Shown here in pieces: positions 627 through 60,190 of a stretch of 64,000 nucleotides of DNA. Below the pieces are notes generated by a model. The model was not told the origin of the DNA and did no database searches. It was given only the letters and a program-made list of their open reading frames with translations. The position numbers were made by a program, and so were the translations under genes. The stretch's first letter is position 1; each line of letters begins with the position of its first letter. The stretch is from Amoeboaphelidium protococcarum X5 (Eukaryota > Fungi > Aphelidiomycota), in assembly GCA_023515725.1 (NCBI GenBank), contig JALDTO010000251.1, forward strand, positions 620,001 to 684,000, given 5' to 3'.

Positions 627-2567
627 ATGCTTAGTGAGAGTATGAAGACTCATTTAAGTGGGCTGGATATAAAATAATTGCTGTGTATGAACTGTCTTAA
701 TTTGATGACTTCATCGAGGTCTCCAAAACTTTTAAACTGTGGTCATTCATTTTGTCAGTAATGTATCGATTAAATGCCGGTATTTAACTATCAAGAGCTG
801 GAAACAAAAACTACCCATTAGACTAAATCTTTCGGTGTTTAATAAAATGGTGTGAAAAAGTTGGATACCGTGTTTAGTTTTTTGAGTATTTTTGGAGTGA
901 ATTTAAATAATGAAGTGGCGAATGATCTTAGTTCTCAATTGGAATCCCCTCATACCTACACTCAGAAGCATGGATTTGGTGGTAATCTGATTTGCACCGT
1001 CTGCAATGCGGAAACTGTTCTAAGTGCTGATGGGAAGACTGGTCTGGAGAGCAGTGAATTTCTGGCCGCTGTTTGCGACAATGTATTCTAGCATATATCA
1101 CTTTGCGGTAATTTACATATTGTTTCTTTATCTGTATTTTAAAGTGAATTCAATGATTTTAATATCGTAACTTTGTGTAGCTGACTGTACAACTAATCAA
1201 GTCTAGAGTTATTGCTCCGATTGCAATTTATTTCTGTGCTTGCAGTGTAATCAGCGCCTACATTCTGGTTCGTAGACTAAATTTCATCACGTTGCTCAAG
1301 CCTGTGGAGGTCAAGGTGATGATACTCTGACATTATTAGCTGAGAAGTTTAAGGTAACTAAATATCTTACATCTCTTTTATGGTAACATATCATGATTAA
1401 CATACGCGAACATAAGTGTTGTAGATTTGTAAAGATCACCCTGGAGAAAAGGCCATGCTTTTCTGTGAGTAGTGTGAGTAGATGGTCTGTTTTATGTGTA
1501 TTTATAGCAAGCATGATAAACATAAAAAGATCTTACTTACTGAAGCTGCTGGTGTTCAAAAGCAAAAGTTAATCAACAGCGCAGATCTCATTGCGTAAAA
1601 GAGTGATTCTATTAGACTGACTCGAGACTCTATACAGAACGGATTATCTTTAATTGATTAAAATTCCTTCAACTCCCGTCAAACTATTTAAAAGACTATA
1701 TCAAGTGCTGTGAATGAATTGAAGATTTTAGAGAAGGAGCTTTTAGATGAAATTAACGATCAGGCTCATAACAAGAAACTGCTCCTCTAGAAGCAGTAGA
1801 ATGATTTGTAATCTAGGTAAGCTGATTTGGAATTGAGACACTAAACAATCAAAAAGTTGACGAAAAGCAACAATGACTACTTAATCACTCAATTCTCAGA
1901 GCCTGTAACCTCCACTATGAATCAACTGCTTTAATCTCTTCCTAGTTTGGCACTATAATCAGATTCCTCGGTTGATTGTGACACTAAATAGATTGCATCG
2001 CTACTTCGAGTAATTGCTAATGAGATTGATCCACAGGTTAAGTAGGAACCATAATCCCATGCTGTTGATCCTAGACTGCTAGTTAATAATAATATCTAAT
2101 ATTGTGATAACGTCCCAGCTAGTAATCCATAGCCAAAGGTTGCTGATATCCGTCATCAGTATGAATAATATGCAACACCTCCAACCTATATAGAATCGCA
2201 AGTCAGATAGAATTAATCCATCTCAGCTGATCTAATAGCTAGCAATCCAAATATCACTGTTAGTAAATCGTATGTTGTTAAAGAGAGCGCAAAGCCACCA
2301 TCCGTGATAGAAAAGACGCAGAATGAACCAGCTAAGGATGTCAGTGCCAAGGCTGCTCCAAAGAGAAAGTACAAGCGACGTAAAGCTGAAGAAGTTCCTC
2401 AAGAGCAATTGAGTGGTAATGCAACTAACATGCAGCCAGCAACCGTAAAAGAGAAAGAGAAGGTTAAGCGAAGTGTGCCCGTTGTAGAGTCTCCTCCAAT
2501 TCGCGTAGTCAAATTATCTTCATCTGATGATGAGTTTGACTTGCCCGTCATTAGCTGGAGTAAATGA
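627..2567 (+). CDS. TRIM/RBCC-type protein (RING, B-box1, B-box2, coiled coil, disordered tail); probable E3 ligase
   Basis: RING CMNC..PKLLNCGHSFCQQC...CTVC; B-box1 CADC..YCSDCNLFLCLQCNQRLH..H; B-box2 CKDH..FCEQCEQMVCFMC..H..H; then a Q/L/E heptad region. Introns 1108-1180 and 1354-1424; ends in TGA. Confidence 0.85.
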
Positions 2568-2919
2568 TTACATCAAACTTGTTGTGAAATGTATTTCTGA
2601 ATTTTTATCCGTGAAGAACAATTCCATATGTAGTAGAAACGTGGTAAAAGTAAGATGCTCCACTGGTGCAGAAACCAAAATCACGACGAAACAGCCTGGG
2701 AACGGGGGCGATCTCGTTGTGAAATTTCCGTTGAACCGCCCGCGACTTGTTCTGTTTCAGGAACGTTTCTTGGCTGGGTGATCGTCGTTTCTTATTCACC
2801 TGACCATTCTCTCTCTCTCTTGTCTCACTCACTCACTTACTTACTCCCTCACTCTGACTATTTGCATTTCATTGCCAATTTAACTTACCCATATAAATCC
2901 TGATATCTCATAAACTGAA

Positions 2920-4171
2920 ATGCCTAGCAGCGAAAGTAATAAGTCATCAGACAACAACAACAATAATAATAATAAGAACAAGAAGAAGCCATTGTCTACG
3001 CACTTGATCGCTGGTGGAGGTATGAATTTTGAACTTATAAATGTCATTAGCATTGTCGCTGTCTACATTGTAATTGAGTATTATTAAGTGTAGGAGCTGG
3101 TTTTGTCGAGAGTTGCGTCTGTCATCCTTTGGACACTATCAAAGTTAGGATGCAGCTTAGAGGAAAGACTAGTGTAAGATTGATATCAAACTTCTTATAA
3201 TGAAGTAAGTATATAAATGCAACTCATTATTAAGTGTAGTCCATGCCAAAGAATATTGGTTTTTTCGGGGTTGGACAGTTGATAGTGAAGAGGGAAGGTA
3301 TTCTGGCTTTGTACAAGGGACTGGGTGCCGTAGTTAGTGGAATTGTGCCCAAGATGGCTATTAGGTTCATGTCTTTTGAGTTTTATAAAGGCTTAATGGC
3401 GGACAAGGATGGAGTTGTTACGGTTGGAAAGACATTTGTTGCTGGTCTTGGTGCAGGTGTGACTGAAGCTGTAATTTTTACATTTATCTATCTCATTGTT
3501 AGAGTTGATAATTATAAGATGATACTTGTAGATTATGGTTGTTACTCCTATGGATGTGCTGAAAATTCGTCTTTAAGCTTAGCGTCACTCTATGGCCGAT
3601 CCAATGGATGTGCCAAAGTATAGAAATGCTGGACATGCAGCTTATACAATCATTAGAGAGGAAGGATTTGGTGCGCTGTACAAAGGAGTCACCTTAACCG
3701 CTCTGAGACAAGGTATAATGCTCTCTTTATATATTGTTGTCGACTTTTGGTATATTTATATTGTCATATGTAGCAACTAATCAGGCTGTGAATTTCACTG
3801 CTTATAAGGAGATGAAGGACTGGTTGTTGAAGTATCAGAATCTTGATAATCTTCCTTCTTATTAGCATCTTCTGGCTGGTGGTCTCTCTGGAGCTCTTGG
3901 ACCAATGAGTAATGCGCCTATTGACACTATAAAGACTCGTATCCAGAGATCCACTTCCCTGCCTGGTGAGTCGGCATCCACTAGATTTAAGCGCGTTGTT
4001 ACTGGAATTTATCGCGAAGAGGGAGTGATGGCGTTCTACAAAGGATTGACACCGCGTCTATTACGTGTCGCCCCAGGACAGGCTATTACATTTATGGTGT
4101 ATGAGAGAATTCAGCGCTGGATTAATACTATTCAGTTGAGTGGTATCAACGGAAGCAACGATGAAATTTGA
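2920..4171 (+). CDS. SFC1: mitochondrial succinate/fumarate carrier
   Basis: Three PxDxxKxRxQ repeats, GLGAVVSGIVPKMAIRF, KIRLQAQ (Q=TAA,TAG). Introns 3020-3093, 3174-3239, 3471-3531, 3713-3773. Confidence 0.9.
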
Positions 4172-4271
4172 TAATGATAAAGGTGCTCGTTGTTACATCT
4201 TGTATTTGCTTATTTCTATTTTTCATTATAAGTAAAGTGATCCAATTTTTGTGCATAAGGTGGTGTATCAA

Positions 4272-5509
4272 ATGGTTGTGAGTATTTCCATGTAAATTCC
4301 TAAAGGTCGTGGCGCTACGTGCATTAAATTTGTCAATGACGACTGTTTTAGTGTGTCCACCATATCTGGTCATTTATACACGTAATATATCTTTTCTAAC
4401 CTAATCTTAAAGCTATACTTGATTTGCATAATGTTTGTAGATATCGCGCGTCTGATTTGCATTAGTTGAGTAAAATCAAAGTATCAGCGGAGAGTTTATG
4501 CTCATTTGACGTCTTTGATCATTGTGTGTACGCTGTTGATTCTGGCTCAGGTCTATCTTTGTATGATTGTGAAAGTGCTCAAGTCGTATCGCATCTGGAT
4601 GATCAGTTGGACTTTGAGCCTGAAGTGATTAAAGTGCTTCCAGGTCTCTCCGCTTCGAGTGGGTCTGCGGTGTCTGTTATCGGCGGCGTTGATGGTCACA
4701 TTGCTATTCATGATTTTAGATAGCGTAAATGCGTATATTAATGGAATGATGTACATGAAGGAGAAATCCGAACATTTTTGCAGCGGGATGGAGATAGTAA
4801 ATCGGTGATATCTCTATCAGAAGATGGGTATCTGTCAGTATTTGATATCCGCAAAGTTTATCATAAACCATAGCCATAGGCCAAAGATGCATCCGACTAT
4901 GGGCTTATTGCGCGCAGTGATAACATGGAAGCTGGTATGCTCTGTGGTGCAGTGATGAAGCACGGTAAAAGGGTGGTGGTGGGCTTTGAGAATCCGTCCA
5001 ATTCCTAATTGAATCCTCAAAGTAGCAACGACGTGATGGGAATTTTCAATTGGGATAATTGGGGTGACATGTCTGATAGATTCGTGGTCCCTGCGCTAGA
5101 TAAGGCGACGCGTCACACCTCTAATTCTGAATCTATAACTGCAATGGTGAAAGTGAATGAGGATGAAGTGCTGATTGGAAATGAGGCCGGTGTCATTAGT
5201 CTTGTAAATGTACAGCCAAACAAAGTTATACGCACTCTAAATTGCTAATCGTCTAGTACTCTGACTGAAGTAAAGAAAATTCGACATGATGTTGAAATGA
5301 TGGAAATTAATGCATTCGGATCGACATTGATTACGGCTAATATGCTTGGTCACTTAGATCTCTACCGCAACTTTAATGCTTTCCTCGATGGCACAGAAGA
5401 TGCAGACGATTCATCATAGCATGGTAAACAGTCACGTCGAAAGAGACGGAAACAGAGCAGGGAAGATGATGAACATAAAGTCACCAACAGTTTCTATGCT
5501 GATATGTGA
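4272..5509 (+). CDS. JIP5: WD40 protein, WDR55/JIP5 family
   Basis: WD-like repeats, KHGKRVVVG, GIFNWDNWGDMSDRF, C-terminal SFYADM*. Intron 4382-4440. Confidence 0.7.
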
Positions 5510-5542
5510 TACTAAATAGAGTCAAATTCGTCAATATTTAAT

Positions 5543-6615
5543 TCAGTATTTTTAGCTCAGCTACTCCATGTCCCACCCAGCGTCAGATAGCATTTGGATG
5601 GCATCTCTTATCACGGGCAAATCAACAGCTTTTCCCTCAAGTTCGAAGGCGCCTGGTATAGTATTGAGATTTTGAACTGCCATTTTGTGCTTGAGAACGT
5701 CCATAACTTTCTGAGCCCATGCCACTTCATCCTCTGAGGGCGCGAACATCTTATTAATCACGTCAATCTGAGCAGGATGAATACACTGCTTCCCATTGAA
5801 ACCCATTTGCCTACCATTTAAGCATTCAGAGCGTAGCAATTTTCTCCACTCATCATTCTTGGTGTCGCGCTTACTCGACACGTTGATTGAAACAAGATCA
5901 ATCGCGAGGAGTTAATAAGCTTTAGCGACGCACTGCAAATGACTTCTTGGGTAAATGTACGTGCTTAGATCATTCGTTCTCTGCACTCTGCTGCTAGCGG
6001 TGTAGTCTTCTGACGCAAATACTAATCCCAAAAGAGCAATATTATCATACACCGCTTAAGAGGACTATGCAATACTTTATGCGTTAAGAATAGCCATCGA
6101 ACTCTCTAAAGCTGACAAAATACTTAGACGCTTCTAACTTTTCTACTGATCGTAACCAAATTGAGTCAAATACTTATCTAAATGTCCCAAATGTTGGCTA
6201 TTCTCTGTCTTGGGTAGGACAATACCATCAGCGAGATGAAGATGTGGCGATAAGACTGACAAATCACTTTTGCTCCACTCTGACAACTCTCCATCAGAAG
6301 TCAAAGCATTGATTCTTATGAAGATTTAACTCTATCGCTCATCTTCTTTACGCGTATGCTACTGCAGAAAGTCCACAATCATCTTACGTGCACTCCGCTT
6401 GGCAGAAAACGCTACTCCATCCTCTAGATCCAACACAACGGCATCCGCTCCACGGTTCATACATTTCGACAGCATATTCTCATTACTTCCCGGTACTACA
6501 ATTGTTAAAGGATGGTAGAATTAGTATAACAAACTTTCAGAGTACAAATCATACCATTGAACAGCGAGCGAATACGCGGTATAGTTCCAATCTTGAATAG
6601 TTCTTTTGGCAGCAT
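5543..6615 (-). CDS. citrate lyase beta-like (CitE/CLYBL family)
   Basis: RSLFNVPGS, LDLEDG, GFNGKQCIHPAQID, GKAVDLPV. Intron 6496-6554. Confidence 0.85.
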
Positions 6616-6829
6616 AATTTTAAGCTATTATTTTAAAGATTTAGATTGAAGATTTGAATATAAACTGCAAAAATCTCAAATCTGCACACCCTTATTCTGT
6701 AGCTAAGCGAGACTTGCAGTTTGTGTTTGATCTCTCAGCTTTTAAGCTTTCCTCTCTCTTTCTCGCTTATAATCCACTTTAAGGTAGAAAGGTTACAACA
6801 ATACTGAACTAGTATAATTTGAAATTAGA

Positions 6830-7919
6830 ATGTCAAAGGAATCAGATACGCAACCGATTGTGAACAAGGATCCTTATGGGATCAAGCGCTTTATTAGCGG
6901 TGGCATCGGAGGTATGTATTAAATATACATTTCCATTATTACTTTATCAATCGAGATATCATTCAATTGCATCTGTAGGAATGTGTTTGGTTCTGGTTGG
7001 TCAACCATTTGATACTGTTAAAGTTAGACTGCAGACAGATTCGCAGTATAAAGGAGCGATGGATGTGGTTAGAAAGACTATTGCGAAGGAGGGAATAAGA
7101 GGATTATACCGCGGAATGGCCACACCATTGATCTTTGTAACGCCTATGTACGCTGTCTGCTTCTGGGGTTATGAGATGGGCCGCAAGTTGTCGGTCAAGC
7201 TTTGGAACTCAAAGCCTGCTGATCCGCTGACTCTGAGCCAGGTTAGCTTTGCTGGTGGATTCAGTGCTGTACCAACTACATTCTTGATGACCCCTATTGA
7301 GAGAATCAAGGTGATCTTGCAGACTCAAGGATCATCGACTGCGGGCAGCTCTGCAGTAGTTTTAAAAGGACCGGGAGATGTTGTTAAACATTTAATGAAG
7401 ACTGGTGGTGTATCAAGTTTATACAGAGGATTTGGCGCTACTCTGCTTCGTGATGTCCCTGGTAGTGTTGCCTATTTTGCCACCTATGAGATTGCTAAAG
7501 AGAAGCTATCCAAAAAGTCTGCCGATGGACAGCTTGACAAGGCTGCTATTCTGTTCTCTGGAGGTAGATTATATATTTACATTCCCATCAAGATTAAATT
7601 TATTGACTTTGAGTATTTGTAGGCCTTGCTGGTGTTATGAATTGGGCGATTGCCATCCCACCTGATGTATTAAAGTCTAGATTACAATCGGCTCCTGAAG
7701 GCATGTACAAAGGTTTGGGTGACGTGTTTTTCAAGCTGATACGCGAAGAAGGTGTAACTGCATTGTTCAAAGGCTTCGGTCCGATCATGCTGCGTGCATT
7801 CCCAGTAAGATTGTATTGTTTTGATGATCAACTGTAATTCTATATTCCGCGTGTAGGCTAATGCTGCAACATTCTTTGGAGCCGAAATGAGTAATAAGGC
7901 TTTAGAAAAGTTATTCTGA
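6830..7919 (+). CDS. CRC1: mitochondrial carnitine/acylcarnitine carrier (SLC25A20)
   Basis: [56 protein letters not shown]. Introns 6912-6978, 7564-7622, 7805-7856. Confidence 0.9.
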
Positions 7920-8416
7920 CGTGTGATGTATTGACAATGAGTAGTTATACCTAGGGAACCCCGCAACTTTAACCTTGATGATTTTCACGCGCGCCTTCTC
8001 TGTCTGCTTAGATCTGTTTAGACTCCAACTATCTAATCAGCCAAAGATTCGTACACAAAATATAACAATAATTCACAATTATTAGATAACTCGCTTAATA
8101 CCACTTCATAGTCATTATTTATTCAGATACTTAATTCCCGACTGTAACAACTACGGTACATCAAGCATCACGTCATCCACATACACTCCTGAGTCTCTCT
8201 CGATTTATGGCCCGTTTTCCCACAGCAAGATCAAGCGCGAAACGAAAAAGCGACGCGAGCCGCGGTTTGTGAAACGAAATCTTTTTCATTTTATTGCGCA
8301 ACGACGACACTCAAGCCAATCGCCCCGTGCCACAGACGATAATCGTCCATTGCATTGACTACTTTCTATATACACAATTATCCCTTGGTGTGTATATATT
8401 TATCATTAACACCTAT

Positions 8417-9656
8417 ATGGCAGTATCTAAATTCTCCTTTGCGCTGGTTATCGCTGTTATCGTATCGCTGCTGAATTCTGTTATCGGCTATGGATTCGGA
8501 GGTATTACCTATTCTCATTGTATGATTATCATGGTTAATGAATATATATTTAATTCATGTAGGTCATCGAATGGTTGCAGCGATTGCTTAATCTCTATTG
8601 ACAGAGTCAACAGTGAGACAGCTCGAAGCGATACTGAAATATGATGGTCATGAGAGTAGTAGTAGTGTCAAAGCCGTCAGTGCTGGTAATAATGATGATG
8701 ATTATCAAAGCAATGGTGTGGCGTCGTTGATTGGCGGAGATCCGAATTATCAGTTGGATTTGCAGAGAATCTCAACATGGGCCGATCAGATTAAGAGAAG
8801 TGCCAAGTACCGATTCACTTCTCAGCTGCACTATGTCAATCCTCTGGACAATGAGCCGCAAAAGTGTAGCTACAACTATGCCCGCGATTGCCCAATCAAA
8901 TTTGAAGGGGATCAATTTGGTACTTGCATCGTTGGTGCACTGAAGAACTACACGCAGCGTCTATTGACGAGCGATGACATCTCAGTGCAGATTGAGGCTC
9001 TGAAGTTTATCGTTCACTTTGTCGGTGATATTCATCAGCCTCTTCATGCATCTGGTCGTTAGCGTGGTGGTAACGATTATTCAGTGCGTTTCTTCAATGC
9101 CAAGTCTAATCTTCACGCTGTCTGGGATGGCCTTCTTCTGGATAAGATTGTGCGTCAGATGTTCCACAGCTATGATAAGTCTGGTATTGATGAAAGTGAC
9201 GCGTCCGAAAAGAGCGGTGATAGTGATGATGATGATGATCTAGCTCGTGGTGTTGATTACGCGCCTCTGACAGACTATCTCATCACCAAGATAAATGATG
9301 GCTGGGACGGTCAGGTTGGTAAATGGGAAACTTGTTCGTATCCGCGCATGGTATTCCAGGATCCAACTTCACCGTTAATGTCCAGTGAACCATTTCTCGC
9401 TGTGCAAGATTTAACCAGCTCCGTGTGTCCTGACCTGTGGGCTCGCGAAAGTAATTAGTACAATTGCAAATCTGTGTGGCCTAAGGATGGGATCTAAACT
9501 CTCGGCCAGGATTATGTTGATGCGAATTAGAAGATTGCTATTGAGATTGTGGCCAAGAGCGGTGTCAGACTGGCTGCCATTCTCAATTCGATCATGGACG
9601 CTCGCGAACGGATGCGCATCGTCGGTGAGGTTAAGAGTGAACTTTAATTACTATGA
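8417..9656 (+). CDS. secreted S1/P1 nuclease
   Basis: Signal peptide, YGFGGH (WGxxGH-like), WAD, LHYVN, HFVGDIHQPLH, GGN, NLHAVWD, RLAAILN. Intron 8502-8562. Confidence 0.9.
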
Positions 9657-9840
9657 GCCTTATTTAAACGTGGAATTTTGTGTCTTATTTTTGGTTCTTT
9701 CACAATTTAAATTTCTTATTTTATAATCTTTTCAGTGTCAACGCTTTGGGACAGAGTGAGAGAGTTACTTTTTTTGTTCTCAAAAATAGATTAAAAACAC
9801 GTTAATATTTATCACCTTTTTTTGGAGTGTAATCATCGTG

Positions 9841-11643
9841 ATGCTTAGTATTGGGAGAAGGATTATAAGTGTAAACAGTCTGAGGATATAAAAGTATCCA
9901 CTAGCATCCGGTAGTAGATTGTAGTTGAATGCTTTGGGTTAAAGAAGTTTTACTACTCGGCCCGTTATTGGACCTTCATCGATGCCAGTCTATCATCGTT
10001 AACCATAATACAAATCTATTGTACTGACAAAGTAATGGATTAAAAAGTATTCTACTAATCAGCTAGCTCCTTAATCATCTAATAATAATCAATCCGCTAA
10101 GAAATCGCTGTGGACTAAGATTAAAGAGGAAGCCCTTCATTATTGGAATGGTACTAAACTACTGGCAAAGGAGATGAAGATATCGACGTTGCTCTTGATG
10201 AAGTAGAGTCGTGGCCACAAGCTATCTCGTAGAGAGCATCGATAGTTATTGAGAACTAGTAGAGATATGGTAAAGCTAATTCCATTCTCGATATTTGTGT
10301 TGGTACCTTTTACTGAGCTGCTTCTACCATTCGTGCTCAGAATATTCCCAAATATGCTCCCCAGCACGTATGAGCACGATAAAGGTGGTGTAAAAGATGA
10401 AGGTATTCGCAAATAGACTTGGACGGAGAAGGTTAAGTTGGCCAAGATGTTGAGATAATCCATCAATAAGGATCTGGAGACTGTGGATAATGCAGGATCT
10501 GCACAAGAGTTTGCCAAATTCTTTAAAAAGTATCGATCCAGTGGTGAACGGGCATCCACCGAGGAGATTCTGGCCATGTGTAAGAAGATATCTGACGATA
10601 TCACTATCGATAATCTGTCGCGCCCGTAGTTGATCACTCTGGCCCGGTTCGTCAACTTGAATCCTACATCGAATACTGTGAGTGCTCTCACCTCGTTTGC
10701 CACTGACAATATGCTCAGAGCTGCCCTCAGACGTAGAATGAGATAGATCAAGTCTGATGATGAAATGATACACGCTGAGGGTTTAGACTCGTTGACGATT
10801 TATGAATTGGTCCAGGCATGTCATGCTAGAGGTATCAAGACTGTGGGTGTGGACCCGGATAGATTGAGATTTGAGTTGCGTCAATGGATGGATTTGCATC
10901 TGGTACACAAGATTCCATTTACTCTAGTGCTGCTCTCACGCGCGTACATTATGAGTGAACGTGCCGTCATTAAAGAGACTACTACCGAGGTACGGCCCGA
11001 TGTTATCACCGTGTTAGAAGAAGCCGTTGGTGATGGTGGAACTACTCTGAGTGAACGTGAATAGTTGGAGGCTCTGCAGTAGACACTTAACTCTTTACCA
11101 CCTAAAATTTTGGCAGAGACTGAGCTGAAATTGCAAGAAGATGAGATTGATCGCGAGGCAAGTAAGAAGGACAGAAAGGCTGCAGCTTCTGCCGCTGCAG
11201 AAGTTGCTCGTCAAGCCATGGAAGAAGCCGCTTAGTAGGTTGCATCTGCTGGTAGTAATACTGCTGCAGCTGCTTCGGAAGAGCCTTAGCTGAGTGCTGA
11301 TGACTTGGAGCGTGACTTTACCAAGAGAAAGTTGGAGTACATTGATGCAGAGTAGAAACTGATAGAAGAGGAAGAGAAGGAGTTTAGTGAGCATCCAGAA
11401 TTGATACCAGATGATGATGACAGTCAGTCTGATGACTTGAGCAGTAGTGAAAAGGAGCTGAGGCACTCGTTAGACTCGGACAAAGCTTCATCCATATAGA
11501 GCAGAGATGAGCTTATGGACAATAATTAGCAATTGATTGACGATAATATCGCCATTGACGCGTAAAAGTATCGCGATACCAAGTCTGTAGATTCCGTATC
11601 TGGTGATAAAAGTGGAGATGGAAGTTCTCTAAATAAGAAATGA
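9841..11643 (+). CDS. MDM38: LETM1/Mdm38 mitochondrial inner membrane protein
   Basis: [54 protein letters not shown]; a single 600-aa frame under TAR=Gln. Confidence 0.92.
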
Positions 11644-11701
11644 AAATAGAGTTAAATCTTCAAAAAAGACTTTGCTTAGAACACAGTTGAACACTTTACA
11701 A

Positions 11702-12430
11702 TCACAACTTCTTCTTACTTTTAGCAGGAGTTCCCACAGTCTTGACACTATCAGCCACAGGCGCTTCGTGAACAGAGCCAACGCGATAATTGCTCTCCCA
11801 CAGCGCAGTGTAAATCTTCTTGCAACTATCAACTGTCAACATGATAGGTACGATTATCCATGGCAGATTGCAGAGTACAAAATACCCCCAAAAGTATTGA
11901 GGATGAGGATTAACTTCTGGAAAGTTGTGATACCAGCTAGATGCATAGTACACCACACACCCGTACAGTTGACCGACAGAGACCAGGAGTTGGAGCAAAT
12001 AGCGAGCCGGAGTCTGGTACATGTAACTGTAAACTAAATACAGACAAGCAGGACCTTCTAGAGCAGCGGTAATCATTTCGATAAAGAGCACTGTTGGATC
12101 GCTGGTCATGTAACGGGAATCAGCTTTAGCATACTCCTTCCATGCCTGTCCAAACAGAGACATATCGGAAGGGAGTTGATTGTTCCAGCCCTTCATCACA
12201 AAATGTCCCTCAAAGAATGTATGGATGCAGCCACACAGGGCGAACCACACAATAGCCAGGCGATCACATTGACAGATTCTATACTTGCTGTAGCCAGATG
12301 CAACGTAAGCAACCAGAGAAATTACACCGAAACCACCAAAGAAAGTTGTCAAAATGGACTGCGTGCTCATATCATTTGGCACATAGCCATTTAGCTTAAT
12401 GTTATGAGGATAATAATTGTGCATGTTCAT
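11702..12430 (-). CDS. EBP: emopamil-binding protein family sterol delta8-delta7 isomerase
   Basis: HTFFEG, WKEYAKADSRY, E..TAALEGP, GQLYG, FWGYFVLCNLPWIIVP; C-terminal KKKL ER-retrieval signal. Confidence 0.88.
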   Translation of the reverse strand: MNMHNYYPHNIKLNGYVPNDMSTQSILTTFFGGFGVISLVAYVASGYSKYRICQCDRLAIVWFALCGCIHTFFEGHFVMKGWNNQLPSDMSLFGQAWKEYAKADSRYMTSDPTVLFIEMITAALEGPACLYLVYSYMYQTPARYLLQLLVSVGQLYGCVVYYASSWYHNFPEVNPHPQYFWGYFVLCNLPWIIVPIMLTVDSCKKIYTALWESNYRVGSVHEAPVADSVKTVGTPAKSKKKL

Positions 12431-13039
12431 CTTGAATAGTTGAGCGATTCAAGTAAATAGTAATGTACCGTGGTAGTATTGAATGTTCGGTAGCAGGTCG
12501 GCTGTGTTTAACTCTTTAGGAAGATGAATGGCTTGAATGGCTTGAAACGGATAACGCGAGACGCGTCAACTTTTGATAGGTGCGGCTTTCTGTGAGAATA
12601 GACAGCTCCAGTGACTGGATTGGGAAACTATTCTACCGCCTCGCTTCATTCGAAAGTTTGTGTTGTAGAAAATTCCCATGAAGTCATCTAATAATAGTGC
12701 GACTCTTACATCAGCTCCCAATATAGTAAATTATTCCCATCTGTTGAGGCCATGCTGATGAGTTTTGCTTATCAACCATCATTTCATTTACTTGAATGAT
12801 GTTGCTTGGATACGGTGTTTGATGCATGTCGTCTGTCGGCATATTCACGGTCGGAACCTGTTGAATCTCTCGGCAATTCCTAATTTAGTGAGCCGACGAT
12901 CAGTCTAAAATATTCTGAACTTCACCTGCTTCCTTTTTCATCTATCATCTAAATAGCGATTTTAAAAAAAGTACCAAGTTTACTTGCACGTTTTTATTTC
13001 ACATAATCTCAAGAAGTTTATATATATATATATTCAAGA

Positions 13040-13276
13040 ATGATTCGTACTGCTTTGCGTAAACCAGAGACTGCTATCATTATTGGCATTATGGGCCTGG
13101 CTGTTAGTCTGTCCACCTTCCACTTGGTCAAGCTGGGTCTTGATCCTCACTCTAGGTACGCAAAGACTATTGAAGACAGGGAATGGGAAAAGAAGATGCC
13201 TTCAAAGTATCTGCAAGTGAGATGGTCAGACTTGGTCTAGAAGAAGAAGGATGCTGAAAGTGATAATAAGTAGTGA
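13040..13276 (+). CDS. small single-TM mitochondrial protein, NDUFA4/MLRQ-like
   Basis: 78 aa: KPE, one TM, then DP; family call from pattern only. Confidence 0.5.
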
Positions 13277-13370
13277 GAGTAAACTGAGGTTACCCCGGCA
13301 TTAATAAATTGACTAAGTAGAAGTTTATATCTTATTTTGTTTATAAAGTTCTTTTTTTTAACATAATCAT

Positions 13371-14468
13371 TCAATAATAAATGCATCGAGTCTTGTGAAT
13401 GGGAATGTCGCTCATACTATGCGATTCTAGCTTTGCATAATCCCATAGAAAAAAGTCTACCAAGATGGCGTTGACTTTATGCACCAGATCCGGATGGAGA
13501 ACGCGTATTCTATCAACGATCTTCTCCACAGCAATTATCGAGTTGGCTCTAATTTCAACTTCCATAGGATCGCCATTCTCTATGAGACTACCCTCGTGGA
13601 GAACGTCGTTCAACTGCTGGCTGTATGAGAGCACATCTATTGCTAAGAGACATTGTGGAACGCGGTAATCGGCAAACATTGTAATGCTGTCTATATCTAG
13701 AAAGTCAGTATCTCCATTCGTATACTCTGAATAGCTTTTGAAGGCAGCATATACGTCAGCTACTAGAATTTATACTCGTTTATACAAGTAAACATCCATA
13801 GTACTCCCATCTTTCAGTTAATATCGCGACTCGTCTCTAAAAGTGGGGAAATGCTCGAGCATAATGGATATCAAATTCTGACTATTTCTGTTGCCAGCAG
13901 CGACAATATTACTAAATTGAGCATCAAATTGTTATAGCATGATTTTGTAGGCTTCCATCACATTGTCATAGCGCGTTTGTATAAGAGGCATTTCAATATC
14001 AGGATCATCGCCGCGAAATATGCTCTTAAACAAATCATAATCACAATTTTATACCATTGCTTTTACATCAAGCAAGTTGTGTCCTTCATCCAGAGCTCTA
14101 TTTATACAAGCGTGTAATGTCCAATAGCCAGAGTAAGTGACGCCATCATACGTTACTTTATAAACTGATTACGGATCACACCAGAATGAATAATTGAGCA
14201 AATCGCTGAGAAATATCCAATTCAACAAATCATTGTATCCAAGTACGTGGCCACTTTTGAATTTCTGTCCTATCTTGGGATGAAGCTTATGTTACGACCA
14301 TTAATCCCAAGAGTAGTCGCTATCACTGATTTTTGTAGCAATCCAACGCGCAGCTTTATCAACACCTTCTACATTGATATACACATGCTTCGAGTTGCTA
14401 CTAACGCGTTTACAAGATTCTAAAACTTTAAATGATGGCTTCTATTAATCTATTGGTATACTGTTCAT
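13371..14468 (-). CDS. QNG1: queuosine salvage protein / Q-nucleotide hydrolase (DUF2419)
   Basis: FPTFRD, YKRVQILVAD (Q=TAA), MFADYRVPQ, EVEIRA, DFFLWD, HKTRCIYY*. Confidence 0.92.
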
Positions 14469-14493
14469 TGTTCTTCTAAAACGAGGGAAATAA

Positions 14494-19107
<4,614 letters not shown>

Positions 19108-27708: not shown

Positions 27709-27744
27709 CTTAAATCAGTTTCTACAAAATATATTTATAATCAA

Positions 27745-41684: not shown

Positions 41685-41972
41685 TCATTTATCTACAGAA
41701 GTGAGGGAGATCGATTTAAGATTTTTGCCAGGAATCATTACTGTGCCAGTGATACGAGTAAATCCTACAACACACTGAATGTTTAATTAATCGCTAGCTC
41801 TATATAAATTCTTACCATTCGCATATCTCTCTTTGGAATTGTGAAGCACGACATTTCTATGTTTATCCACACATACAAACTAGCCAGATACCACGCGTCC
41901 ATCTGATACAGTCACAGTACATTTAGCATCCTTCTATTACATCAACTCCAAAAGCCGAGATTTGGCATCCAT
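41685..41972 (-). CDS. NAA38: LSM-domain protein, NatC auxiliary subunit Naa38/Mak31-like
   Basis: VSDGRVVSGQFVCVDKHRNVVL..E...R.TGTVMIPGKNL. Intron 41765-41815. Confidence 0.7.
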
Positions 41973-47226: not shown

Positions 47227-47437
47227 AATAGTAAAAAGTTGTAGTGTTTACTCAATTGCTTTATTTTTACGTTGTATACACCATTGTAAAACGAAGTCCG
47301 GACGCTCTGCTACAATTTTCTAACGTTAATCGAATCACGTTAAGATGTGACCCCTGGCGTGATTTTCAAGTCCGACTGCTGATTTCATCTTTTTAATTAC
47401 ATTGTTAGATCAATCAATGTAATACTATTTAGAGAAA

Positions 47438-48244
47438 ATGCTATTATCAATTCTTGTTTTTAGCTTTTTAACGGTATCCGCATTTGCTCTGTAATTGCGT
47501 AAATTTGATTACCACTCAAGGAATTTCGCGTGTTAGGCATCCAATTCACACGCGTAATGGCACATGCGTAATCTGATGTCTGCTAAATCGCTCAGATATC
47601 TAGAGAGTGTTGGTGAAGAAAGCTTATTCTTAATCTAGCAGTTTGGTCCATAATCTGTATATCGCCAAGATTATTTAGAACATATTTATGATGATGCTCC
47701 ATAAGAATTGAACTAGGTGATGGTGGAATCATTATTAAGGCTACATCGCATAATCTAATCCCCCTCTGATATTGATGCCTCCATAATATAACAGTTCACC
47801 TGCCAAGAGTTTGGTATGTCACTGTCTTTAGAGATAAGTAAGGAGATAATTTTGACTTTTAGGAAGGTATCAGAAGAGTTTAGATTGCCTGTCATAACAG
47901 GCAAATTGAACAATAGATCCCTGGATCAGAAATCACACCTACGATCTTTGCATAAGCGACAACATGATGAGTTGAACCGCGAAATCAAGCGCGCTTTCGT
48001 TGGATTAGTCCAAATTTTAATTGGAGTCCATATTGCTAGAACTGAAATGATAGCGGAAATTGCCTCAGAAGGAAGACGTCCTTTTTTTACCCAAGAGCTA
48101 ATTCAAGCAGCGGGACATGTTGCTTCCGGGTATTTTTTGATCTAGTAGGAACCACAATAGGCTTTAATTGTCTTTTCATTGGCCGCGATACTGAGCATAG
48201 TTGTTCACGTTTTGACGACGAGACACGTTCAAGCCATTAGATGA
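47438..48244 (+). CDS. LxKR preproprotein family member 1 (268 aa)
   Basis: Signal MLLSILVFSFLTVSAFA; YDDAP; LHKR; hydrophobic C-terminal helices. Confidence 0.85.
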
Positions 48245-48537
48245 GTTTTGATTAGATAAATACACTTTTCAGTATTTTCATTTGGCCGTATAGCGATTTA
48301 ATGTTTTGCTCTTACAGTGGAGTTTATACTGTTCTATTCTGGTGAGTGTTCAGGATTCAACCTAAATAACTTAGCAGTCTATGTGTGTCTCCTCAGTCGA
48401 CCATGAGAATTTCACGAGTTCACGTTATATCGCGCCCCTTTGTCCCCGCCGTGAAATTCAAAGACCGATACTAGATTTACCCATTGTCTTTATATATATT
48501 GATATAAGATCAATTTATATAATACTATTTAGAGAAA

Positions 48538-49338
48538 ATGCTATTATCATTTGTTGTCTCAAGTTTTTTAACGGTATCCACGTTTGCTATTTAATTGCGT
48601 AAATTCGATCACCACTCAGGAAATATCGCGTGCGGTGCATCTAATTCACACGCCAATCTGCACCTTAATGGTCTGCTGTCTAGGAAATCGCTCAGTTATC
48701 TGGAAAGCATCGGAGAAGAAAGCTAATACTTGATTGATTAGTTTGGCCCTTAGTCGGTGTATCAGTAGTAGTATTTAGAGCACATTTATAAAGATGCTCC
48801 ATAGCAATTGAATACAGTGATAGAGGAGTCATTATTAAAATTGCATCGCCTGCTCAAGGCTTCCTCTGATGTCGATGTATCCGTGATACAAATATTCGCT
48901 TGTCAAGAATTCGGCGTGGCTTTGCCTTTGCATGTAAGCAACCATGTAATTTAGGCATCCATGAAGGAATTCAAGGAACTTAGATTGCCACTCATTAAAG
49001 ATGGCTCTTATGATCGAAAGTAGAAGTCGCGATCACTGTAAAAGCGATAGCATGATGAAAATAGTATGCGTAGATTGCGCGCTATTGTCGGATTTGTCGA
49101 ATTATGGATTGGAGGAGATATGGTTATCGTCGCAACGTCGCTCGCTTAGGCTCGCAGGTAACGACTGGACTCCGCGTTTTTTTCCCAATCGCTAATACAA
49201 GCATTGGGGCACATGTCGGCTGGGGCTTTTATGATCTAGTAGGACACACCAAGTGCCTTAGTTTGCATCATATTAGCCATGATACTGGACAGCATCATAA
49301 AATTGATGCTAATGAGGCACGCCCAAGTCAATAGATGA
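48538..49338 (+). CDS. LxKR preproprotein family member 2 (266 aa)
   Basis: Close paralogue of member 1, including upstream DNA (aatactatttagagaaaATG); YKDAP; LQKR. Confidence 0.85.
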
Positions 49339-49752
49339 AGTATGACTAGATAGATTATTTAATTTTTTGGCGTTACATTGATTTATTCCAATTCGTTGTG
49401 TTGTAAATGCTCGTTGCACCGTTGATTACGTTAACTAAAACGTGGAAAATCACACGCAGTTGAAACGTTACGCGATCTGCGACATGCATTAGATCTATAT
49501 TGTATTTTTTGGCGTAAGATGCTTTTATTATTTTCCAAAAAAAATCACTATCAGACTATTAATAGCTAATCACGACTTTTTACGTAACGATATTGCTAGT
49601 GATTATTATGCCGCACCTATCTCTTTACGATGAAATGGTGTAATTATTGGAGAGATGCATAACCATTGACGAAGAAAGTTGAATCACGACAGCGTTGAAA
49701 GATTAGACAACTGTAAGTTATCTTTTCAAGTAGGTAGCAGTTTTGCTTAAAA

Positions 49753-50370
49753 ATGCACAATTATAATAATAAGTATCCAGGATTGAGCATCAAATTCCTG
49801 GCTGAAACTTACATAAATGCACCCGATAAATTTGATTTCGCGTTGCATTTCTTGTTGTCTTTTATTGCAAAGGGCGGTATTGATCACGTCGATGCTAGCC
49901 TAATCCAAAAACTCTTTTGTTCTGTATTTGGGATAAAAGTATCCAATAAAGATGGTATTATAATCTACGAATAATTTAAAAAATTCTAGACGGAGCTGGG
50001 TAAGAATAGAAAAGAGCAGGATAAAGTTGGGTCGCTCAGGCCCACACTCGTAGCGGACGTATCTCTTTATAAACGAAGTCTATGGGATAATGCTGAAACT
50101 TTACGCGTGTTCTTTGGCTCCTTGGAGATTCTTATTGGGTACTGTTTTTACACAAGCCTGTTAAATTACTATCGTTCTCTGGAATAGTTGTTAGACCCGG
50201 TTCCTGGCATGGTTGGTGCTGGTTTGATGCTCAGTGGCTCAGAGATGATACTTTAAAATAATAAGGTTGCTGGAATAGTTTTTTATTTGACTATGATCTA
50301 TCTGGAGTTCTATTATCGATTCGTTTAGGTTTATGATCGTATCTCTGATCGTGATTTGTACTATTAGTGA
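49753..50370 (+). CDS. LxKR preproprotein family member 3 (5' end degenerate or unresolved)
   Basis: YINAP, DASLIQKLFCSVFG, LYKR, hydrophobic C-terminus; in-frame TGA at 49696 upstream and no intact signal peptide found. Confidence 0.6.
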
Positions 50371-50652
50371 ATTTCATTTAAGTAGTAACTAGACAGACAG
50401 ACACACTATGGATATCATGATGATAGTAGAATTTATGCACCTAAATCTCTCTTTAAGTTATTTTGACACCGTGTTCAGTTAGCGTAGATTCCTGATTTTC
50501 ATACGGAAATGCATATAATAAGGATGCAAATAACGCGTACCTGACAATGTCCCCTTGAAACGATTGGTTGAGCCCCCAGTCATGTGTTGAATCGTTAATC
50601 CTCTATTTTTGGAGACTAAGTCTGAATTATAGAGTTTAATTACGTCTACACT

Positions 50653-51732
50653 ATGTAAAGTATCTATCTCAGTGTTTTTTATAGCTATCTCATATTGTGG
50701 TCTAATATAGTATATCCACACATTTAAAAGCTGTCTTATCGCTCGTAAACTGCTCTGCTATCATCTGGACTGTCTGACTAGGATTCACGTTTGTATCTGT
50801 ATCGCGTTGGCAATGATGCTTTCAATATAGCGAGATCAGATAGCTTCTAAATAAAAGGTGGTAAACTTATGGATTAAAATTACTGGCTTGATGTTTACAA
50901 TGAGGCTCCTTAAGTGCTTAAGTCTGCCATGACGCGTCTAATTTATAGCGTAGAGCAGGCACTAGTCGTCAACAATTAATAGTTTGATGGTGGTATGATT
51001 TAAAAAGTCTTGATGTAATAATACGGTATCAGATAAAGCAGATAGAATATGGACACTTTGGCATCTGACGCGTTAAAAAGCTTTCATCGAGTATTGAATG
51101 GAGATATAGAAGTAAATACAGCTGACGAAGCTTTTAGTGAGTTGGCTCAGCTTCGACACAATCTTGCGAAAAGCAGCCATCCAAAATTGTTAACTAAGAG
51201 AGGTCTAAGCAATTAGTACAGGAGAAAGTTGTTCGATTCTGAAGTTGGCATTGCATTAAGAGCTGCAGATCAAAATAGAGATGATGTGATATCTCAGTTG
51301 TCGCCTAACACTTAAAAATCTATTAAAATTATCTTGGGAGTCCTGTTCATTATGACTGGTGTCGCGCTTGTTATGTTAAGCTTATCAGGATAAGGCTTGT
51401 CTCCCAGATAAAGGATTAGAAAGGTTTTCACATTGCTTATTGCAGTGTGTGGTGCATTCAGTGCGGGAATACTCTTACTGACATCAGGTCCAGTGAAAAT
51501 TGGTCTTATAATTATTGCTAGTTTTTCTGTGGTTGCGTTTTTAGTATGGTATATTTGTGTCAATCAGTTCCCTTCGCCGGAAGATGATAGTGATTCCGAA
51601 TCATCAGATCACGATTCGGAGTTGAACGAGTAGTCTGCGATAGAGTTGGCTGCAATGCACTTGGAGTAAATTCGTGCGGATTAAGCATAGAACCACATTG
51701 ATGTACTCTCTGGAACTACGGCTAGACATTGA
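50653..51732 (+). CDS. LxKR preproprotein family member 4 (359 aa)
   Basis: N-terminal hydrophobic MQSIYLSVFYSYLILWSNIVYP; YNEAP; LTKR; 3 TMs; acidic tail. Confidence 0.8.
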
Positions 51733-52188
51733 TAGCTTTGTTTCATGATTTTGCATTTAAATAAATATGCTAAATTAAACTTTATTTTTATAAATACTGT
51801 AATGCTATGGCCATTAAGAAATCAACTTTCATTAAATTACTGTGGACTTGTGCTTTGGCGAACAATACACGACTTCACCATGCGAATCCTTACTTAAACC
51901 AAGTCGTGTCTGACCAACACTACTTCAAAGAAGCTGGGGCCACACACATTTAATCGGAAGGATAAATCCATATTATTCTCAAGATGTCCCGTTTGAAGAA
52001 CCACTAATCTCAACTTTGATTAGTGCGGTTTTTCTAGTCATTCACACACGTGAGACTTTGGGCATCTCGAGATTGGAAGTCTCGTGCTTCAAGCTATCCA
52101 CGGCTTTCTCTGATCAGGCAAATGGCACTTTGGTCTTCAAATATTATCACTGATAGTAGAAGTATATATACGGTTTCATTCAAAGGAC

Positions 52189-53286
52189 ATGGCAAACTAC
52201 TGGCTTGGTATCATCTTTAGCTATTTGATCATTTGGTCCAATCTGGTCTATCCTCAGATTTAATCAGGAGCATTCTGCTCCTAAAAGGCGATTGTAAAGT
52301 CTGGTCTATCTGATGGACAATCTTTATAATTTTTGAAAAGCCTTGGATCGGATGTAATGCGTAAAGTGATGGAATCTAATGCTGGCTAGGATAGTATAAT
52401 GAATCCATCCTTTTGGGTGGAGGTATACGATAGCGCGCCTTCTGTACTGCAAAACTCCTTCTCCCGCCTAGTGTAAGATGTCTCTTTAATACGACCAAGT
52501 AAAGATAGATTTAATGGCGCATTTATTAAGGAAATACTTGGCCAGGAGTTTAGTTATGCGTTAGATGAATTCGATCTGGATTAAATGTCGTAACTGGCAC
52601 TGGACAGTTATCATCGAGCTCAACTTGATTAGAATCGTTAATCTTTATACGATGCATTTGCTCAATTAAGCAAGCTGCAATCTACATAATTTATCCCCAA
52701 TAACCGTCGGCCTTAGTTGTGGAAACGTGGGTTTGGAAATAGTAAATTTAATGCTCCATAAGGTTTACGCGGTCGTATGGCGATGGAGATTTTCCACAAT
52801 GATTACTCCAATTATAGTCCTAACCCAGTACTAAACTCAGTACTTTAGAATTTGCCATACATTGTAGGAGCTGCATTTATCTTGATTGGAATCGGGTTAT
52901 CGGTTATAAGTTTTGCTTACAGTCCGGTGTATAGCCGTTAATTTAGGAATGTCATTGCTTGTCTGACGACGGCGGCTGGTTTTTTTGCTAGTGCAATCTC
53001 TTTATTCACTGGCATTGGTTTTATATTAAGTATGATAATACTGGGGTCTTTCCTAACTCTTGCAGGCATAATGTATGTTGCTATTACAAAGTGCGAGACA
53101 TTGGTATAACGAGGCATTAATATTGTTGTTACTCGTTTCCCATTGGAGATTGATCAATCTTTGCCTCAAGTAGAAATGCAATAGTAGTAGTCGTAGTAGT
53201 AGTAATAGCAGTAGAGACATACATAACTCTCAGTGGTAAATGAAGCTGCTTAAGACGCGTAAGAATTGCAGTAGAGTTAGTAGTGA
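52189..53286 (+). CDS. LxKR preproprotein family member 5 (365 aa)
   Basis: MANYWLGIIFSYLIIWSNLVYP (paralogous to member 4); YDSAP; LWKR; 3 TMs; polyQ tail. Confidence 0.8.
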
Positions 53287-55107: not shown

Positions 55108-56877
55108 ATGCCATTTCTTAACGTAATCTATGGTGGAATGTCTGCCGAAATTAAAACTGATGGCATTGAACGAATTGGCGAATTGCGCAGAGCTATTAAA
55201 GAGGAGTACAATAGAGCCCTGGCAGAGATCGATGCTCCTAGATTGCAGCTCTACAACTCCTCTACCAATGATCGAATTGCCACGATGGCTGATTTTCGAG
55301 CACTCCCTAATGCATTCTATGTTGAAGGTGGACCGTGCATTGAAATACGCACATCACCGCCTCCGTCGAAGTAGCCGTCGCTGGTTAATATTGTTCCATT
55401 TCCCCCAAATAGTGGTGCTGTTCATGAAGGCCTTCCTGACGCTGCTCAAAAGCCGGTAATAGATCGCGCTGAACTCGTGAAGAAGATTTCTGACATTATG
55501 GAGAGGCAGATGTCGTTGCTCATTACATCGCCATCGTTCACTGGGAAAACCGCACTAGCTAATTTAATGTATAATCACTGGTAGCGAAGTGGGAAGAATG
55601 TCCATTTTATCTCGTTTGCGAATTATACGCCCGAAATGGATATTGATGAATTTTTCTCTTTGTTCTTAGGGTAGAGCGCTTTGCGTATTATGGCGACTGG
55701 CGGTATTCTTATTATGGACGAAACGCAAAACATTTACAGTCATCCTACCTTTTGGAGTAATCTGAAGAGTGGAGCTTAAGGCTGCAGAGTTCTGGCGTTT
55801 GGTGTTTTTGGTTTATCCACTCTTGGATTTGATCGGTCTCCTTTGCAGTTTCAACTAAAGTGGTATTATGATGATGTCAAATTTTCGGATCAAGAGTGTA
55901 TGGAACTTATCGATAAATTCAAGCAATATAAACCGATTGCTCGCGAAATCTTGGTTCCTGAGGTTATTGGTGATCTTTTAAACAAATTCCTCAATTATCA
56001 CCCTGGTTTAGTTTATCTGGCGTTGCATACTATCTGTTATGAGTTTACACGTACACCATACTGTGCTAAAGAAGTTAAAGATATTCGATTGCTCATGATG
56101 AAAGGAAAACTTCTATCTTAACTTTACACTGCGCGATGTTTTGCCGTGGACTACGATAAGATTAAGCAGATGCTGGGCCGTGATACGGATAAAGATATGA
56201 ACGCGCTGATTCACTACGATTCTATTCCGCTGGATGATAATAATCTTGATTTGCATCGCTATGGAATTTGTATAGCAGATCGTAGTGAAGGAACTTTGAA
56301 ATTCGCAAGTGAAATAATGCGGTTCTTCTATCGAGATTTATACTACAAAGCTACATATGGAGTTTCTGGACGTTATGTGATTACGAACTGGACTGGTGTA
56401 TCTGCGCACACCTTGCTAAAGCGTATTCTCGAGTTATTTAATCCTCGAGTATTTTTAAATACTCAAGCTATAGGTAGAGATGGTCGAATCTATGAGCGTC
56501 TTTTTTAAGATGAGTTTTATAGGTGCTGCTATCTGTTGGCACCATCAAAGTGTCATCCTGATGTCGGGGCGAAGTATAGCTCAACAGGATTCATCGATTT
56601 TTATATTGATGACGAACTTTAATGGGGGTTCGAATTGCTTCGCAATGGGAACAGGCTGAGAGAACACATGGATAGATTTGATCCTACGATCGGTAGATAC
56701 AAAGATATTCCTTTGAACGATTATGCTGTTGTGGACTTTTACGAAGTTTTTGAAAGTGGTGACGAATTCGTCAACGACAAGTACTTTAAGGTTGTATTCT
56801 CGAGTGACTTCAGCTCAGTGGAACTATCTCACAATGGTTAAATTGAACATATCGTTTGCGGCTAACCCCAATAATGA
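55108..56877 (+). CDS. Crinkler(CRN)-type effector: Ubl header, P-loop NTPase, PD-(D/E)xK-type REase (589 aa)
   Basis: IGELRRAIKEE..LAEIDAPRLQLY header; SPSFTGKT Walker A; LIMDETQ Walker B; YERLFQDEFYR..PDVG..GFIDFYI..WGFELLRNG..EH..RF..Y.VVDF. Confidence 0.85.
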
Positions 56878-59149: not shown

Positions 59150-59363
59150 TTTTAAATTATTATTTATACTTTGTATTTAACCTGATATTAACTCTACTAC
59201 TTGCTGCTCTGTGGCTAGAATTCTTATAGTTCGAATTTTAACGAAATCTACTTTAGTTTGTAGGTTGAATCAATCAGTAAATATCACTTCACTCTCAGCG
59301 ATCGACTTCTCTTCTTTTTTTAAGTATCACAACTTGATTCTTATCTCAAACCTTGATCGCTAA

Positions 59364-60190
59364 ATGTCGTAAGCGAAGATTGCTCCATCCCTATTAAGTG
59401 GCGACTTTGCTAGGCTCGCAGAGGAATGCCAGAGAATGGTGGATTGCGGTAGGATATGTGTTTGAGTACAATCTGTATCTTGAAAGTTGGAGTTGGTGTA
59501 GGAGCGGACATGTTGCATATGGATGTGATGGATGGACACTTTGTGCCAAATTTGACCATTGGGGCGCCGATTATAAAGTCTCTGCGTCCGCATACGAAAG
59601 CATTTTTGGATTGTCATCTTATGGTCAGCCATCCATAGCAGTGGATCGATGACTTTGCCAAAGCTGGCGCTGATGGTTACACGTTCCATATTGAGGCTAT
59701 CGCTGCTGGTGCTGGTAGTAGTAATGGTGTAGATTTGCGACAAATGTGTTAACGCGTCAAAGATGCTGGTATGAGATGCGGGATATCTATAAAGCCAAAG
59801 ACTCAACTCTCTGATAAAGCTCCAGGGACTGATCGTTCTATAATTGATGCGTTGATGGATTTGATCAGAAGCGGACTTTTGGATATGATTCTGATTATGA
59901 CTGTCGAGCCGGGATTCGGAGGTTAGAAAATATAAATTGAATAGCTGTAAAAAGTCACAGCATTGCGCGAATAGCTGAACAAGATTGCTGTAGATGTCGA
60001 ATAGGCCCTGCAGTTTGATATTCAAGTAGACGGCGGCATAGATTTGACTAACATTGAGATTGTGGCGCGTTCTGGTGCTAACGTTATAGTTAGCGGCACT
60101 GGTATATTCAAGCCTAAGCAAGAAGGTGTCAGTAGTAAAGATGTAATCACACAGATGAAAGACATTGTGAACAGCCACATTCGCAGTTGA
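59364..60190 (+). CDS. RPE1: ribulose-phosphate 3-epimerase
   Basis: [38 protein letters not shown] (Q=TAG), VDGG. Intron 59449-59501. Confidence 0.95.

Follow-up and report, generated by a model that had tools for sequence, protein, structure and literature searches.

An invariant TGTAG acceptor in the short introns of a 64-kb window of the Amoeboaphelidium protococcarum genome

How is the end of an intron found when the intron offers neither a branch-point consensus nor a pyrimidine tract? The question is raised by a stretch of 64,000 nucleotides (nt) from the aphelid Amoeboaphelidium protococcarum X5 (contig JALDTO010000251.1, positions 620,001 to 684,000; hereafter the window, in whose own coordinates all positions are given). 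An initial annotation, made from the sequence alone, had proposed that the introns of this stretch share an extended five-nucleotide acceptor, TGTAG, and had tied it to the reading of TAA and TAG as glutamine (Gln). The extended acceptor is real: positions -5 to -1 are invariant in 22/22 introns, 19 of them backed by RNA, and position -6 is free. The evidence strongly supports a genuine, lineage-specific variant of U2-type introns.

The identity of the source and of its code is apparent from the encoded proteins. The spliced product of the carnitine carrier gene CRC1 (6830-7916) is identical to P0121, a protein that NCBI names as A. protococcarum, and the product of the BAR-domain gene also matches four NCBI-annotated proteins of this organism. 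The window comprises 44 gene models with 47.6 kilobases (kb) of coding sequence. In-frame TAA or TAG codons (TAR) are present in 42/44 models, and in the septin they stand opposite conserved Gln residues at three positions. The reassignment of both codons to Gln is documented for A. protococcarum (PMC5304391). The 22 introns are spread over 14 genes, giving about 0.5 intron per gene across the 44 models.

Transcript-like contigs were compared with the window over 500-20400 and 20800-40799, about 40 of the 64 kb, with 1-499, 20401-20799 and 40800-64000 lying outside this comparison; the motif was not used. Runs X6, X8 and X9 show GT..AG joints and poly-A ends, are about 97% like the window and were taken as transcript assemblies. 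X15, which is recorded as RNA, was the sole run with a small word share to be included, and X11 and X2, which behave as DNA, served as contrast. Joint rows in the transcript-like runs number 21, of which 19 correspond to predicted introns and two are not introns (one going back, one skipping between repeats). Eighteen of the 19 intron joints were labelled GT..AG or CT..AC by the tool, the exception being 23005-23057; the DNA-like X11 and X2 had 0/19. All 19 RNA-backed introns end in TGTAG and no joint with another acceptor was observed in the compared stretches, the acceptors being taken from the DNA of the window, the RNA coming from a different strain and contigs losing rare splice forms. 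Under a YAG (pyrimidine-AG) acceptor and the base composition of the introns, TGTAG has a chance of 0.040 in each intron and of 3e-27 in all 19; the one-sided 95% lower bound on its share is 0.85, with the introns assumed independent. A first scan that used GC content and the donor, free of the motif, likewise put TGTAG at the top on the plus strand (17/122) and was too noisy for defining introns. The 20 plus-strand ends of the initial annotation are all TGTAG as it had stated, and its range of 51-74 nt holds for the 22 lengths; its two minus-strand introns were taken as 6496-6554 and 41765-41815.

The information content at -5 to -3 reaches 5.7 of 6 bits, and positions -6 to -16 add almost none over background; no column between -16 and -6 is conserved in the 22 introns. 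The textbook donor has T at +6. Here, A occupies +6 in 13/22 donors and T occupies +7 in 15/22 (GTAAGAT type). The donor begins with GTA in 21/22 introns and has G at +5 in 14/22; its +3 to +6 carry 3.3 bits, within the 1-4 bits given for intron-rich species (PMC2483917). Mean GC content is 0.27 in introns and 0.42 in exons, and a GC content of at most 0.33 is found in 21/22 introns vs 1/21 exonic donor-TGTAG decoy pairs. The initial annotation had seen no CTAAC branch point and no polypyrimidine tract, and both absences hold in the 22 introns: CTAAC occurs in 0/22, and C+T is 0.53 in -20 to -6 vs 0.58 in the rest. Other branch-like motifs do not exceed dinucleotide shuffles (TRAY 18 vs 15.9, p 0.20; CTRAY 4 vs 3.1), the best candidate being WTGAY with p 0.056 against such shuffles, at the low power of 22 introns. 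A TGAY branch site, or an enrichment of stops, was considered for an excess of TGA (16 vs 8.8 in base shuffles), but the excess disappears under dinucleotide shuffles (16 vs 12.9, p 0.10) and therefore neither is claimed. The 19 joints have GT-AG ends and are removed from mRNA, in line with U2-type introns. U12-type introns carry a strong ATCCTT-type donor and a CCTTAAC-type branch site; a U12-type donor occurs in 0/22.

The pentamer is chosen in the presence of competing AGs. Another AG lies in the last 30 nt of 11/22 introns (composition expects 0.57), leaving no AG-free zone. The contigs leave unused 11 YAGs that lie no more than 30 nt from one of the 19 RNA-backed acceptors, including three upstream (-29, -17 and -6) and one TGCAG at +18. 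A TTTAG is passed over at -17 in the rhomboid intron 21352-21419 and at -6 in the Tim17 intron 23005-23057. Since AGs close to the acceptor are passed over, simple first-AG scanning does not account for the choice. The word also occurs in exons: a donor-like site precedes 21/43 of the exonic copies by 48-78 nt, and 1/21 of these spans is as AT-rich as the introns. TGTAG thus looks necessary and is not sufficient for splicing.

The RNA-backed introns lie on the plus strand, with one exception. The RING/B-box gene contains introns of 73 nt at 1108-1180 (GTAATT...TGTAG) and 71 nt at 1354-1424, both joined in X6 and X8. Four introns interrupt an SFC1-like mitochondrial carrier gene, at 3020-3093 (74 nt; X8), 3174-3239 (66 nt; X6, X8), 3471-3531 (61 nt; X6, X8) and 3713-3773 (61 nt; X8). 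A WDR55-like gene has one at 4382-4440 (59 nt; X6, X8), and a citrate-lyase-beta-like gene has the minus-strand intron at 6496-6554 (59 nt; CT..AC joint in X6 and X15). The three introns of CRC1, at 6912-6978 (67 nt; spliced product identical to P0121), 7564-7622 (59 nt) and 7805-7856 (52 nt), are each joined in X6 and X8. They are followed by introns of the S1/P1 nuclease gene (8502-8562, 61 nt; X6, X8, X15) and the CDC50 gene (19865-19925, 61 nt; X8, X15). In the rhomboid gene, 21352-21419 (68 nt) has the sole non-GTA donor, GTTAGT, with a joint in X8 and loose ends in X9, and 22020-22079 (60 nt; X6, X8, X9) is in-frame and stop-free. The Tim17 gene contains 23005-23057 (53 nt), whose X6 joint is next to a strain difference and which has a loose end in X9, and 23158-23224 (67 nt; X6, X8, X9). 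The last two are in the acyl-CoA thioesterase gene (26842-26896, 55 nt; X6, X9) and in a gene without a Pfam match (31317-31368, 52 nt; X9).

Three introns come from other evidence. At 43710-43772 on the plus strand, an in-frame intron of 63 nt in the BAR-domain gene is indicated by protein comparison: P0176 (four annotated members, 307 amino acids) is without exactly the 21 residues that it would encode. At 59449-59501, also plus, removal of 53 nt from the ribulose-phosphate 3-epimerase (RPE) gene restores the frame into the GAD motif. The minus-strand segment 41765-41815 (51 nt, in-frame, donor GTAAGA, GC 0.29) in an Lsm (Naa38-like) gene is a probable intron; it falls in a loop of variable length, where homology is not decisive. 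Three of the four introns of length 3n are stop-free (22020-22079, 41765-41815 and 43710-43772), and such introns are invisible to frame analysis under the A. protococcarum code. Further ones could lie in the parts of the window outside the RNA comparison.

The two joints that are not introns belong to other features. At 23782-24059, which covers a short gene for an AN1 zinc-finger protein, an X6 contig goes back 278 nt; as no splice signals flank this joint, looping in the assembly or a circular form is the probable cause. A local duplication occupies 36569-39400. The 3' end of the DNAJC9 gene is found again at 38713-39000, and a second copy of the end of the gene at 39070 lies at 36829-37164; X6 skips 2241 nt from repeat to repeat. 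A copy of the gene at 37217, broken in appearance, is present at 37930-38538. Within 20800-40799 the DNA-like X2 places near-identical contigs and contigs of 90-95% identity at the same sites, as would be expected of a hybrid or strongly heterozygous genome.

The age of the introns and of their ends was approached through relatives. A metagenome scan narrowed 104 candidates to 4 loci, at 41-49% identity and none close to the window; a viral scan gave nothing. Only one locus, L003, was counted, as L002 and L004 repeat it and L001 is unrelated by tree (quick trees of 88/124 rows and 40 rows were used). The L003 carrier groups with A. protococcarum and ten further proteins (SH-aLRT 95, long branch), and probably derives from an aphelid relative. 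The locus (1-6498) carries this intron-rich carrier gene and a WNK kinase gene, the closest WNK relative found being 54% identical. L003 uses the standard code, with 56 Gln codons and 0 TAR. None of its 11 introns, inferred by homology, ends in TGTAG (0/11); ten end in YAG words and one, uncertain, in AAG. A standard-code relative, a comparison suggested in the initial annotation, was thus found to be without the consensus. CTRAY is present in 6/11 L003 introns vs 4/22 window introns (p 0.049), and the L003 donors likewise mostly have no T at +6.

Individual intron positions can be followed in CRC1. L003 carries an intron at the codon position of the 7564 intron, and this counterpart ends in CTCAG. 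Among 50 short homologues, 10 read through the end of the 7564 intron and 1/10 of these fits GTA at -4 to -2; 6 others read into an intron at the 7805 position. At another CRC1 intron, four relatives that read through show F-S, K-S, V-S and R-S, not the C-S that TGTAG would encode, a weak and indirect indication. Because two CRC1 positions are common to genomes with other acceptors, and L003 has 0/11 TGTAG, at least two of the introns are old, with ends rewritten in the A. protococcarum lineage. As far as could be tested, the TGTAG acceptor is lineage-specific.

The acceptor word may also leave a trace in the choice of Gln codons. After an NTG codon, Gln is encoded by TAG 16 times and by CAG 31 times; after other G-ending codons the counts are 55 and 27 (p 4e-4). 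No matching shift of TAA:CAA is found after NTG (interaction p 0.023; 0.079 against all contexts). In intron-bearing genes Gln after NTG is TAG 0 and CAG 15 times, in intronless genes 16 and 16 times. The in-frame TG-TAG codons of intron-bearing genes number 0 vs 5.2 expected (P 0.003), a result that is one of six frame-by-class cells, under an intron-bearing/intronless split chosen post hoc. These counts give some support to a link running from splicing to codons, in which the fixed acceptor may constrain exon codons and TG-TAG is avoided.

We favour, with a probability of roughly 0.55, a reading in which a U2AF-type factor recognises UGUAG early, as one sequence-specific word. UGUAG would take over the role of the branch-point consensus and the pyrimidine tract in these short, AU-rich GT-AG introns, and selection by the splicing machine would have rewritten the ends of old introns. 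Intron definition would span the whole intron, from a GUA donor through an AU-rich body of 50-75 nt to UGUAG. In line with a proposal for C. elegans, the factor on the acceptor would place U2 on a loosely specified A further upstream. A word that has become fixed would restrict the codons of exons, TG-CAG being retained and TG-TAG avoided. The C. elegans acceptor UUUUCAG is bound by U2AF with the -5 U as the key base and no branch consensus, and U2AF is proposed there to place the branch without one (PMC4889670). In S. pombe, the affinity of U2AF1 for UAG is 3-4 times that for CAG (0.47 vs 1.7 uM; PMC7505975).

Several points weigh against this early U2AF-type recognition. The solved U2AF1 complex spans -3 to +2 only (PMC7505975), so the G at -4 requires a changed or extra contact. 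The preference of U2AF1 for G at exon +1 is weak here (10/22 introns). Rfam gave no match in the 64-kb window, where neither a splicing factor nor a small nuclear RNA (snRNA) was seen. Exonic TGTAG is mildly depleted (43 vs 54.7 +/- 6.7) and ranks 9th of 64 NNNAG words. Out-of-frame copies of TGTAG in intron-bearing genes show no depletion (8 vs 7.4), which counts against a simple decoy reading of the codon avoidance. Twenty-two introns give low power for a degenerate branch site and come from one 64-kb window with 14 intron-bearing genes, and the placement of L003 depends on one gene with a long branch.

A possible, though unlikely, alternative is that Pus7 converts the -3 U of UGUAG into pseudouridine on nascent RNA and that the spliceosome needs, or strongly prefers, the mark. 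Every 3' splice site would then be a Pus7 site, and the mark would have replaced the branch-point and pyrimidine signals and would explain the shunning of TG-TAG, a scheme that we hold at the same low level. In UGUAG, the optimal motif for PUS7, the modified U is the central one, corresponding to intron -3 (PMC13689517, PMC8794802), and 78% of PUS7 sites are in UNUAR motifs vs 14% of background (PMC13689517). All 22 acceptors fit the UGUAG (UNUAR) substrate sequence, and a Pus7 site accounts at once for the length of exactly five nucleotides, the lack of constraint at -6 and the exclusion of CAG (0/22). The match is post hoc: fixing AG with a pyrimidine at -3 leaves only 32 words, and several RNA-binding proteins favour UGUA(G). 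UCUAG, which PUS7 modifies well in vitro, occurs at none of the acceptors, and no Pus7 gene was seen in the window. Human PUS7 modifies pre-mRNA co-transcriptionally, including the pyrimidine of YAG, and in human extract the splicing of an MDM2 reporter was enhanced by a pseudouridine that PUS7 had made at its TGTAG acceptor (bioRxiv 10.1101/2020.08.29.273565); yeast Pus7 modifies <5% of UGUAR sites (PMC8794802). The -3 U of the acceptors is predicted to be unpaired at 0.38, vs 0.33 in exonic TGTAG (p 0.40) and 0.37 in shuffled sequence, which gives no separation. The confinement of TGTAG avoidance to in-frame TAG codons of intron-bearing genes could be explained by modification of the reassigned codon, subject to the same post hoc choice among six cells. 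A Pus7 mark and a U2AF reader can act together.

Recognition of UGUAG late, at exon ligation, by an altered Prp8/Slu7/Prp18-like pocket or through pairing with a changed snRNA, seems to us improbable. Passing over an upstream YAG, as at -6 and -17 here, is usually a second-step choice. UGUA is also complementary to the UACA of U6 ahead of GAGA, but U6 is occupied by the donor at the exon-ligation step. A late reader would moreover leave the placement of U2 unexplained where there is no branch consensus or tract. In its favour, a purine at -4 was also pointed out in other extended acceptors by Irimia and Roy, who found nothing in snRNAs to explain it (PMC2483917).

We regard as quite doubtful the idea that the longer acceptor arose from the TAA/TAG reassignment, either through Gln-codon decoys or through retained introns escaping decay. 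The code change and TGTAG do co-occur, and both are absent in L003. A stop lies inside the retained intron in 6/22 cases under the real code vs 19/22 under the standard code, and fewer such stops could raise the cost of splicing errors. The initial annotation had argued that the acceptor compensates for exons enriched in TAG and CAG Gln codons. This part of its proposal fails: recoding of TAG-Gln to CAG keeps exonic YAG at 1399 (1399 vs 1399), because CAG is itself a YAG and TAG-Gln thus adds no YAG decoys, and the reassignment raises the exact decoys, exonic TGTAG, from 27 to 43. The stop-free state of three of the four 3n introns tells against an origin in the code change as well, and a single lineage pair cannot demonstrate cause. 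In Streblomastix, which also reads TAR as Gln, introns are described as ending in an ordinary pyrimidine-AG within a T-rich stretch, and no such acceptor word is described in the excerpt (PMC1501061). A preprint on Paramecium bursaria reports AT-rich GT-AG introns and argues for the opposite effect, with the code making retention more tolerable.

An origin of the introns from a single mobile element (Introner type) ending in TGTAG, for which the identical ends in many unrelated genes would be the trace such elements leave, is very improbable and already largely refuted: the intron bodies are unrelated (best score 27 vs 25.5 +/- 2.5 in shuffles), donors vary and conservation does not extend beyond -5, introns are sparse (22 in the 44 gene models), and two of the three CRC1 positions compared are common to other genomes.

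Three further features of the window concern intronless genes. Five plus-strand genes at 47417-53286, without Pfam matches, form two or three sets of similar members whose ends are predicted to be hydrophobic, and look like a lineage-specific family of secreted or membrane proteins. The gene at 55108-56877 (589 residues, no Pfam match) encodes a short N-terminal domain, a P-loop-like motif and a C-terminal domain, a layout presumably reminiscent of Crinkler-type proteins. The gene at 44941-47226 encodes an NRF plus acyltransferase-3 protein of 761 residues (nose-resistant-to-fluoxetine type).

No description of a TGTAG acceptor or of aphelid intron structure was found in the literature searched, a scope outside which the genome paper (Mikhailov et al. 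2022) lies; there is about one chance in four that this paper or its supplements contain the TGTAG logo. The three TGTAG matches in PMC7367187 are single example introns, PMC10608142 is without mention of introns and PMC10639083 without mention of aphelids, and the excerpts of PMC8476143 and PMC13393502 have no bearing on the acceptor. A system that pairs an invariant UGUAG with a weak donor and lacks a branch consensus would represent another solution to intron definition, reached through the rewriting of old introns, in the sister group of fungi. It offers a natural system in which -5 and -4 are essential, positions that existing U2AF1 structures do not explain. As UGUAG is the best Pus7 motif, it also makes testable whether pseudouridine in pre-mRNA can be a core splicing signal. 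For gene prediction, the TGTAG rule provides a fix where TAA and TAG no longer flag retained introns.

Among known systems, the AU-rich introns of plants have a loose UGYAG-like preference and a weak branch point, with C common at -3; they share the AU-rich body, the U at -5 and the G at -4 with those described here, in which the acceptor is fixed and C is excluded at -3. The human PUS7 motif and MDM2 site consist of the same five bases, the modified U falling on intron -3. Human PUS7 touches few splice sites and a genome-wide requirement is not described in the excerpts, and the present likeness is one of sequence. In a survey of 50 eukaryotes, five had an extended 3' intron end, three anchored by the branch point and one a weak preference (PMC2483917). 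Yarrowia, Trichomonas and Giardia share a conserved 3' end, the lack of a pyrimidine tract and few introns, but their branch point is at a fixed distance from the AG, whereas here CTAAC is 0/22 and the donor is weak (PMC2483917). Ostreococcus lucimarinus (CGCAG) and Eremothecium (G at -4) share a five-base preference with G or a purine at -4; their preferences are weaker (80% G in one subset) and accompanied by a strong branch point, whereas the word here is invariant (PMC2483917). Another close parallel, UUUUCAG/R of C. elegans (PMC4889670), shares an extended fixed acceptor, a -5 U as the most conserved base, short introns and no branch consensus. The A. protococcarum word differs from it in being UGUAG, with G at -4 and only U at -3, not pyrimidine-rich and free at -6 to -8, and it stands identical in 22/22 introns of an intron-poor genome (0.5 per gene) from a different kingdom.

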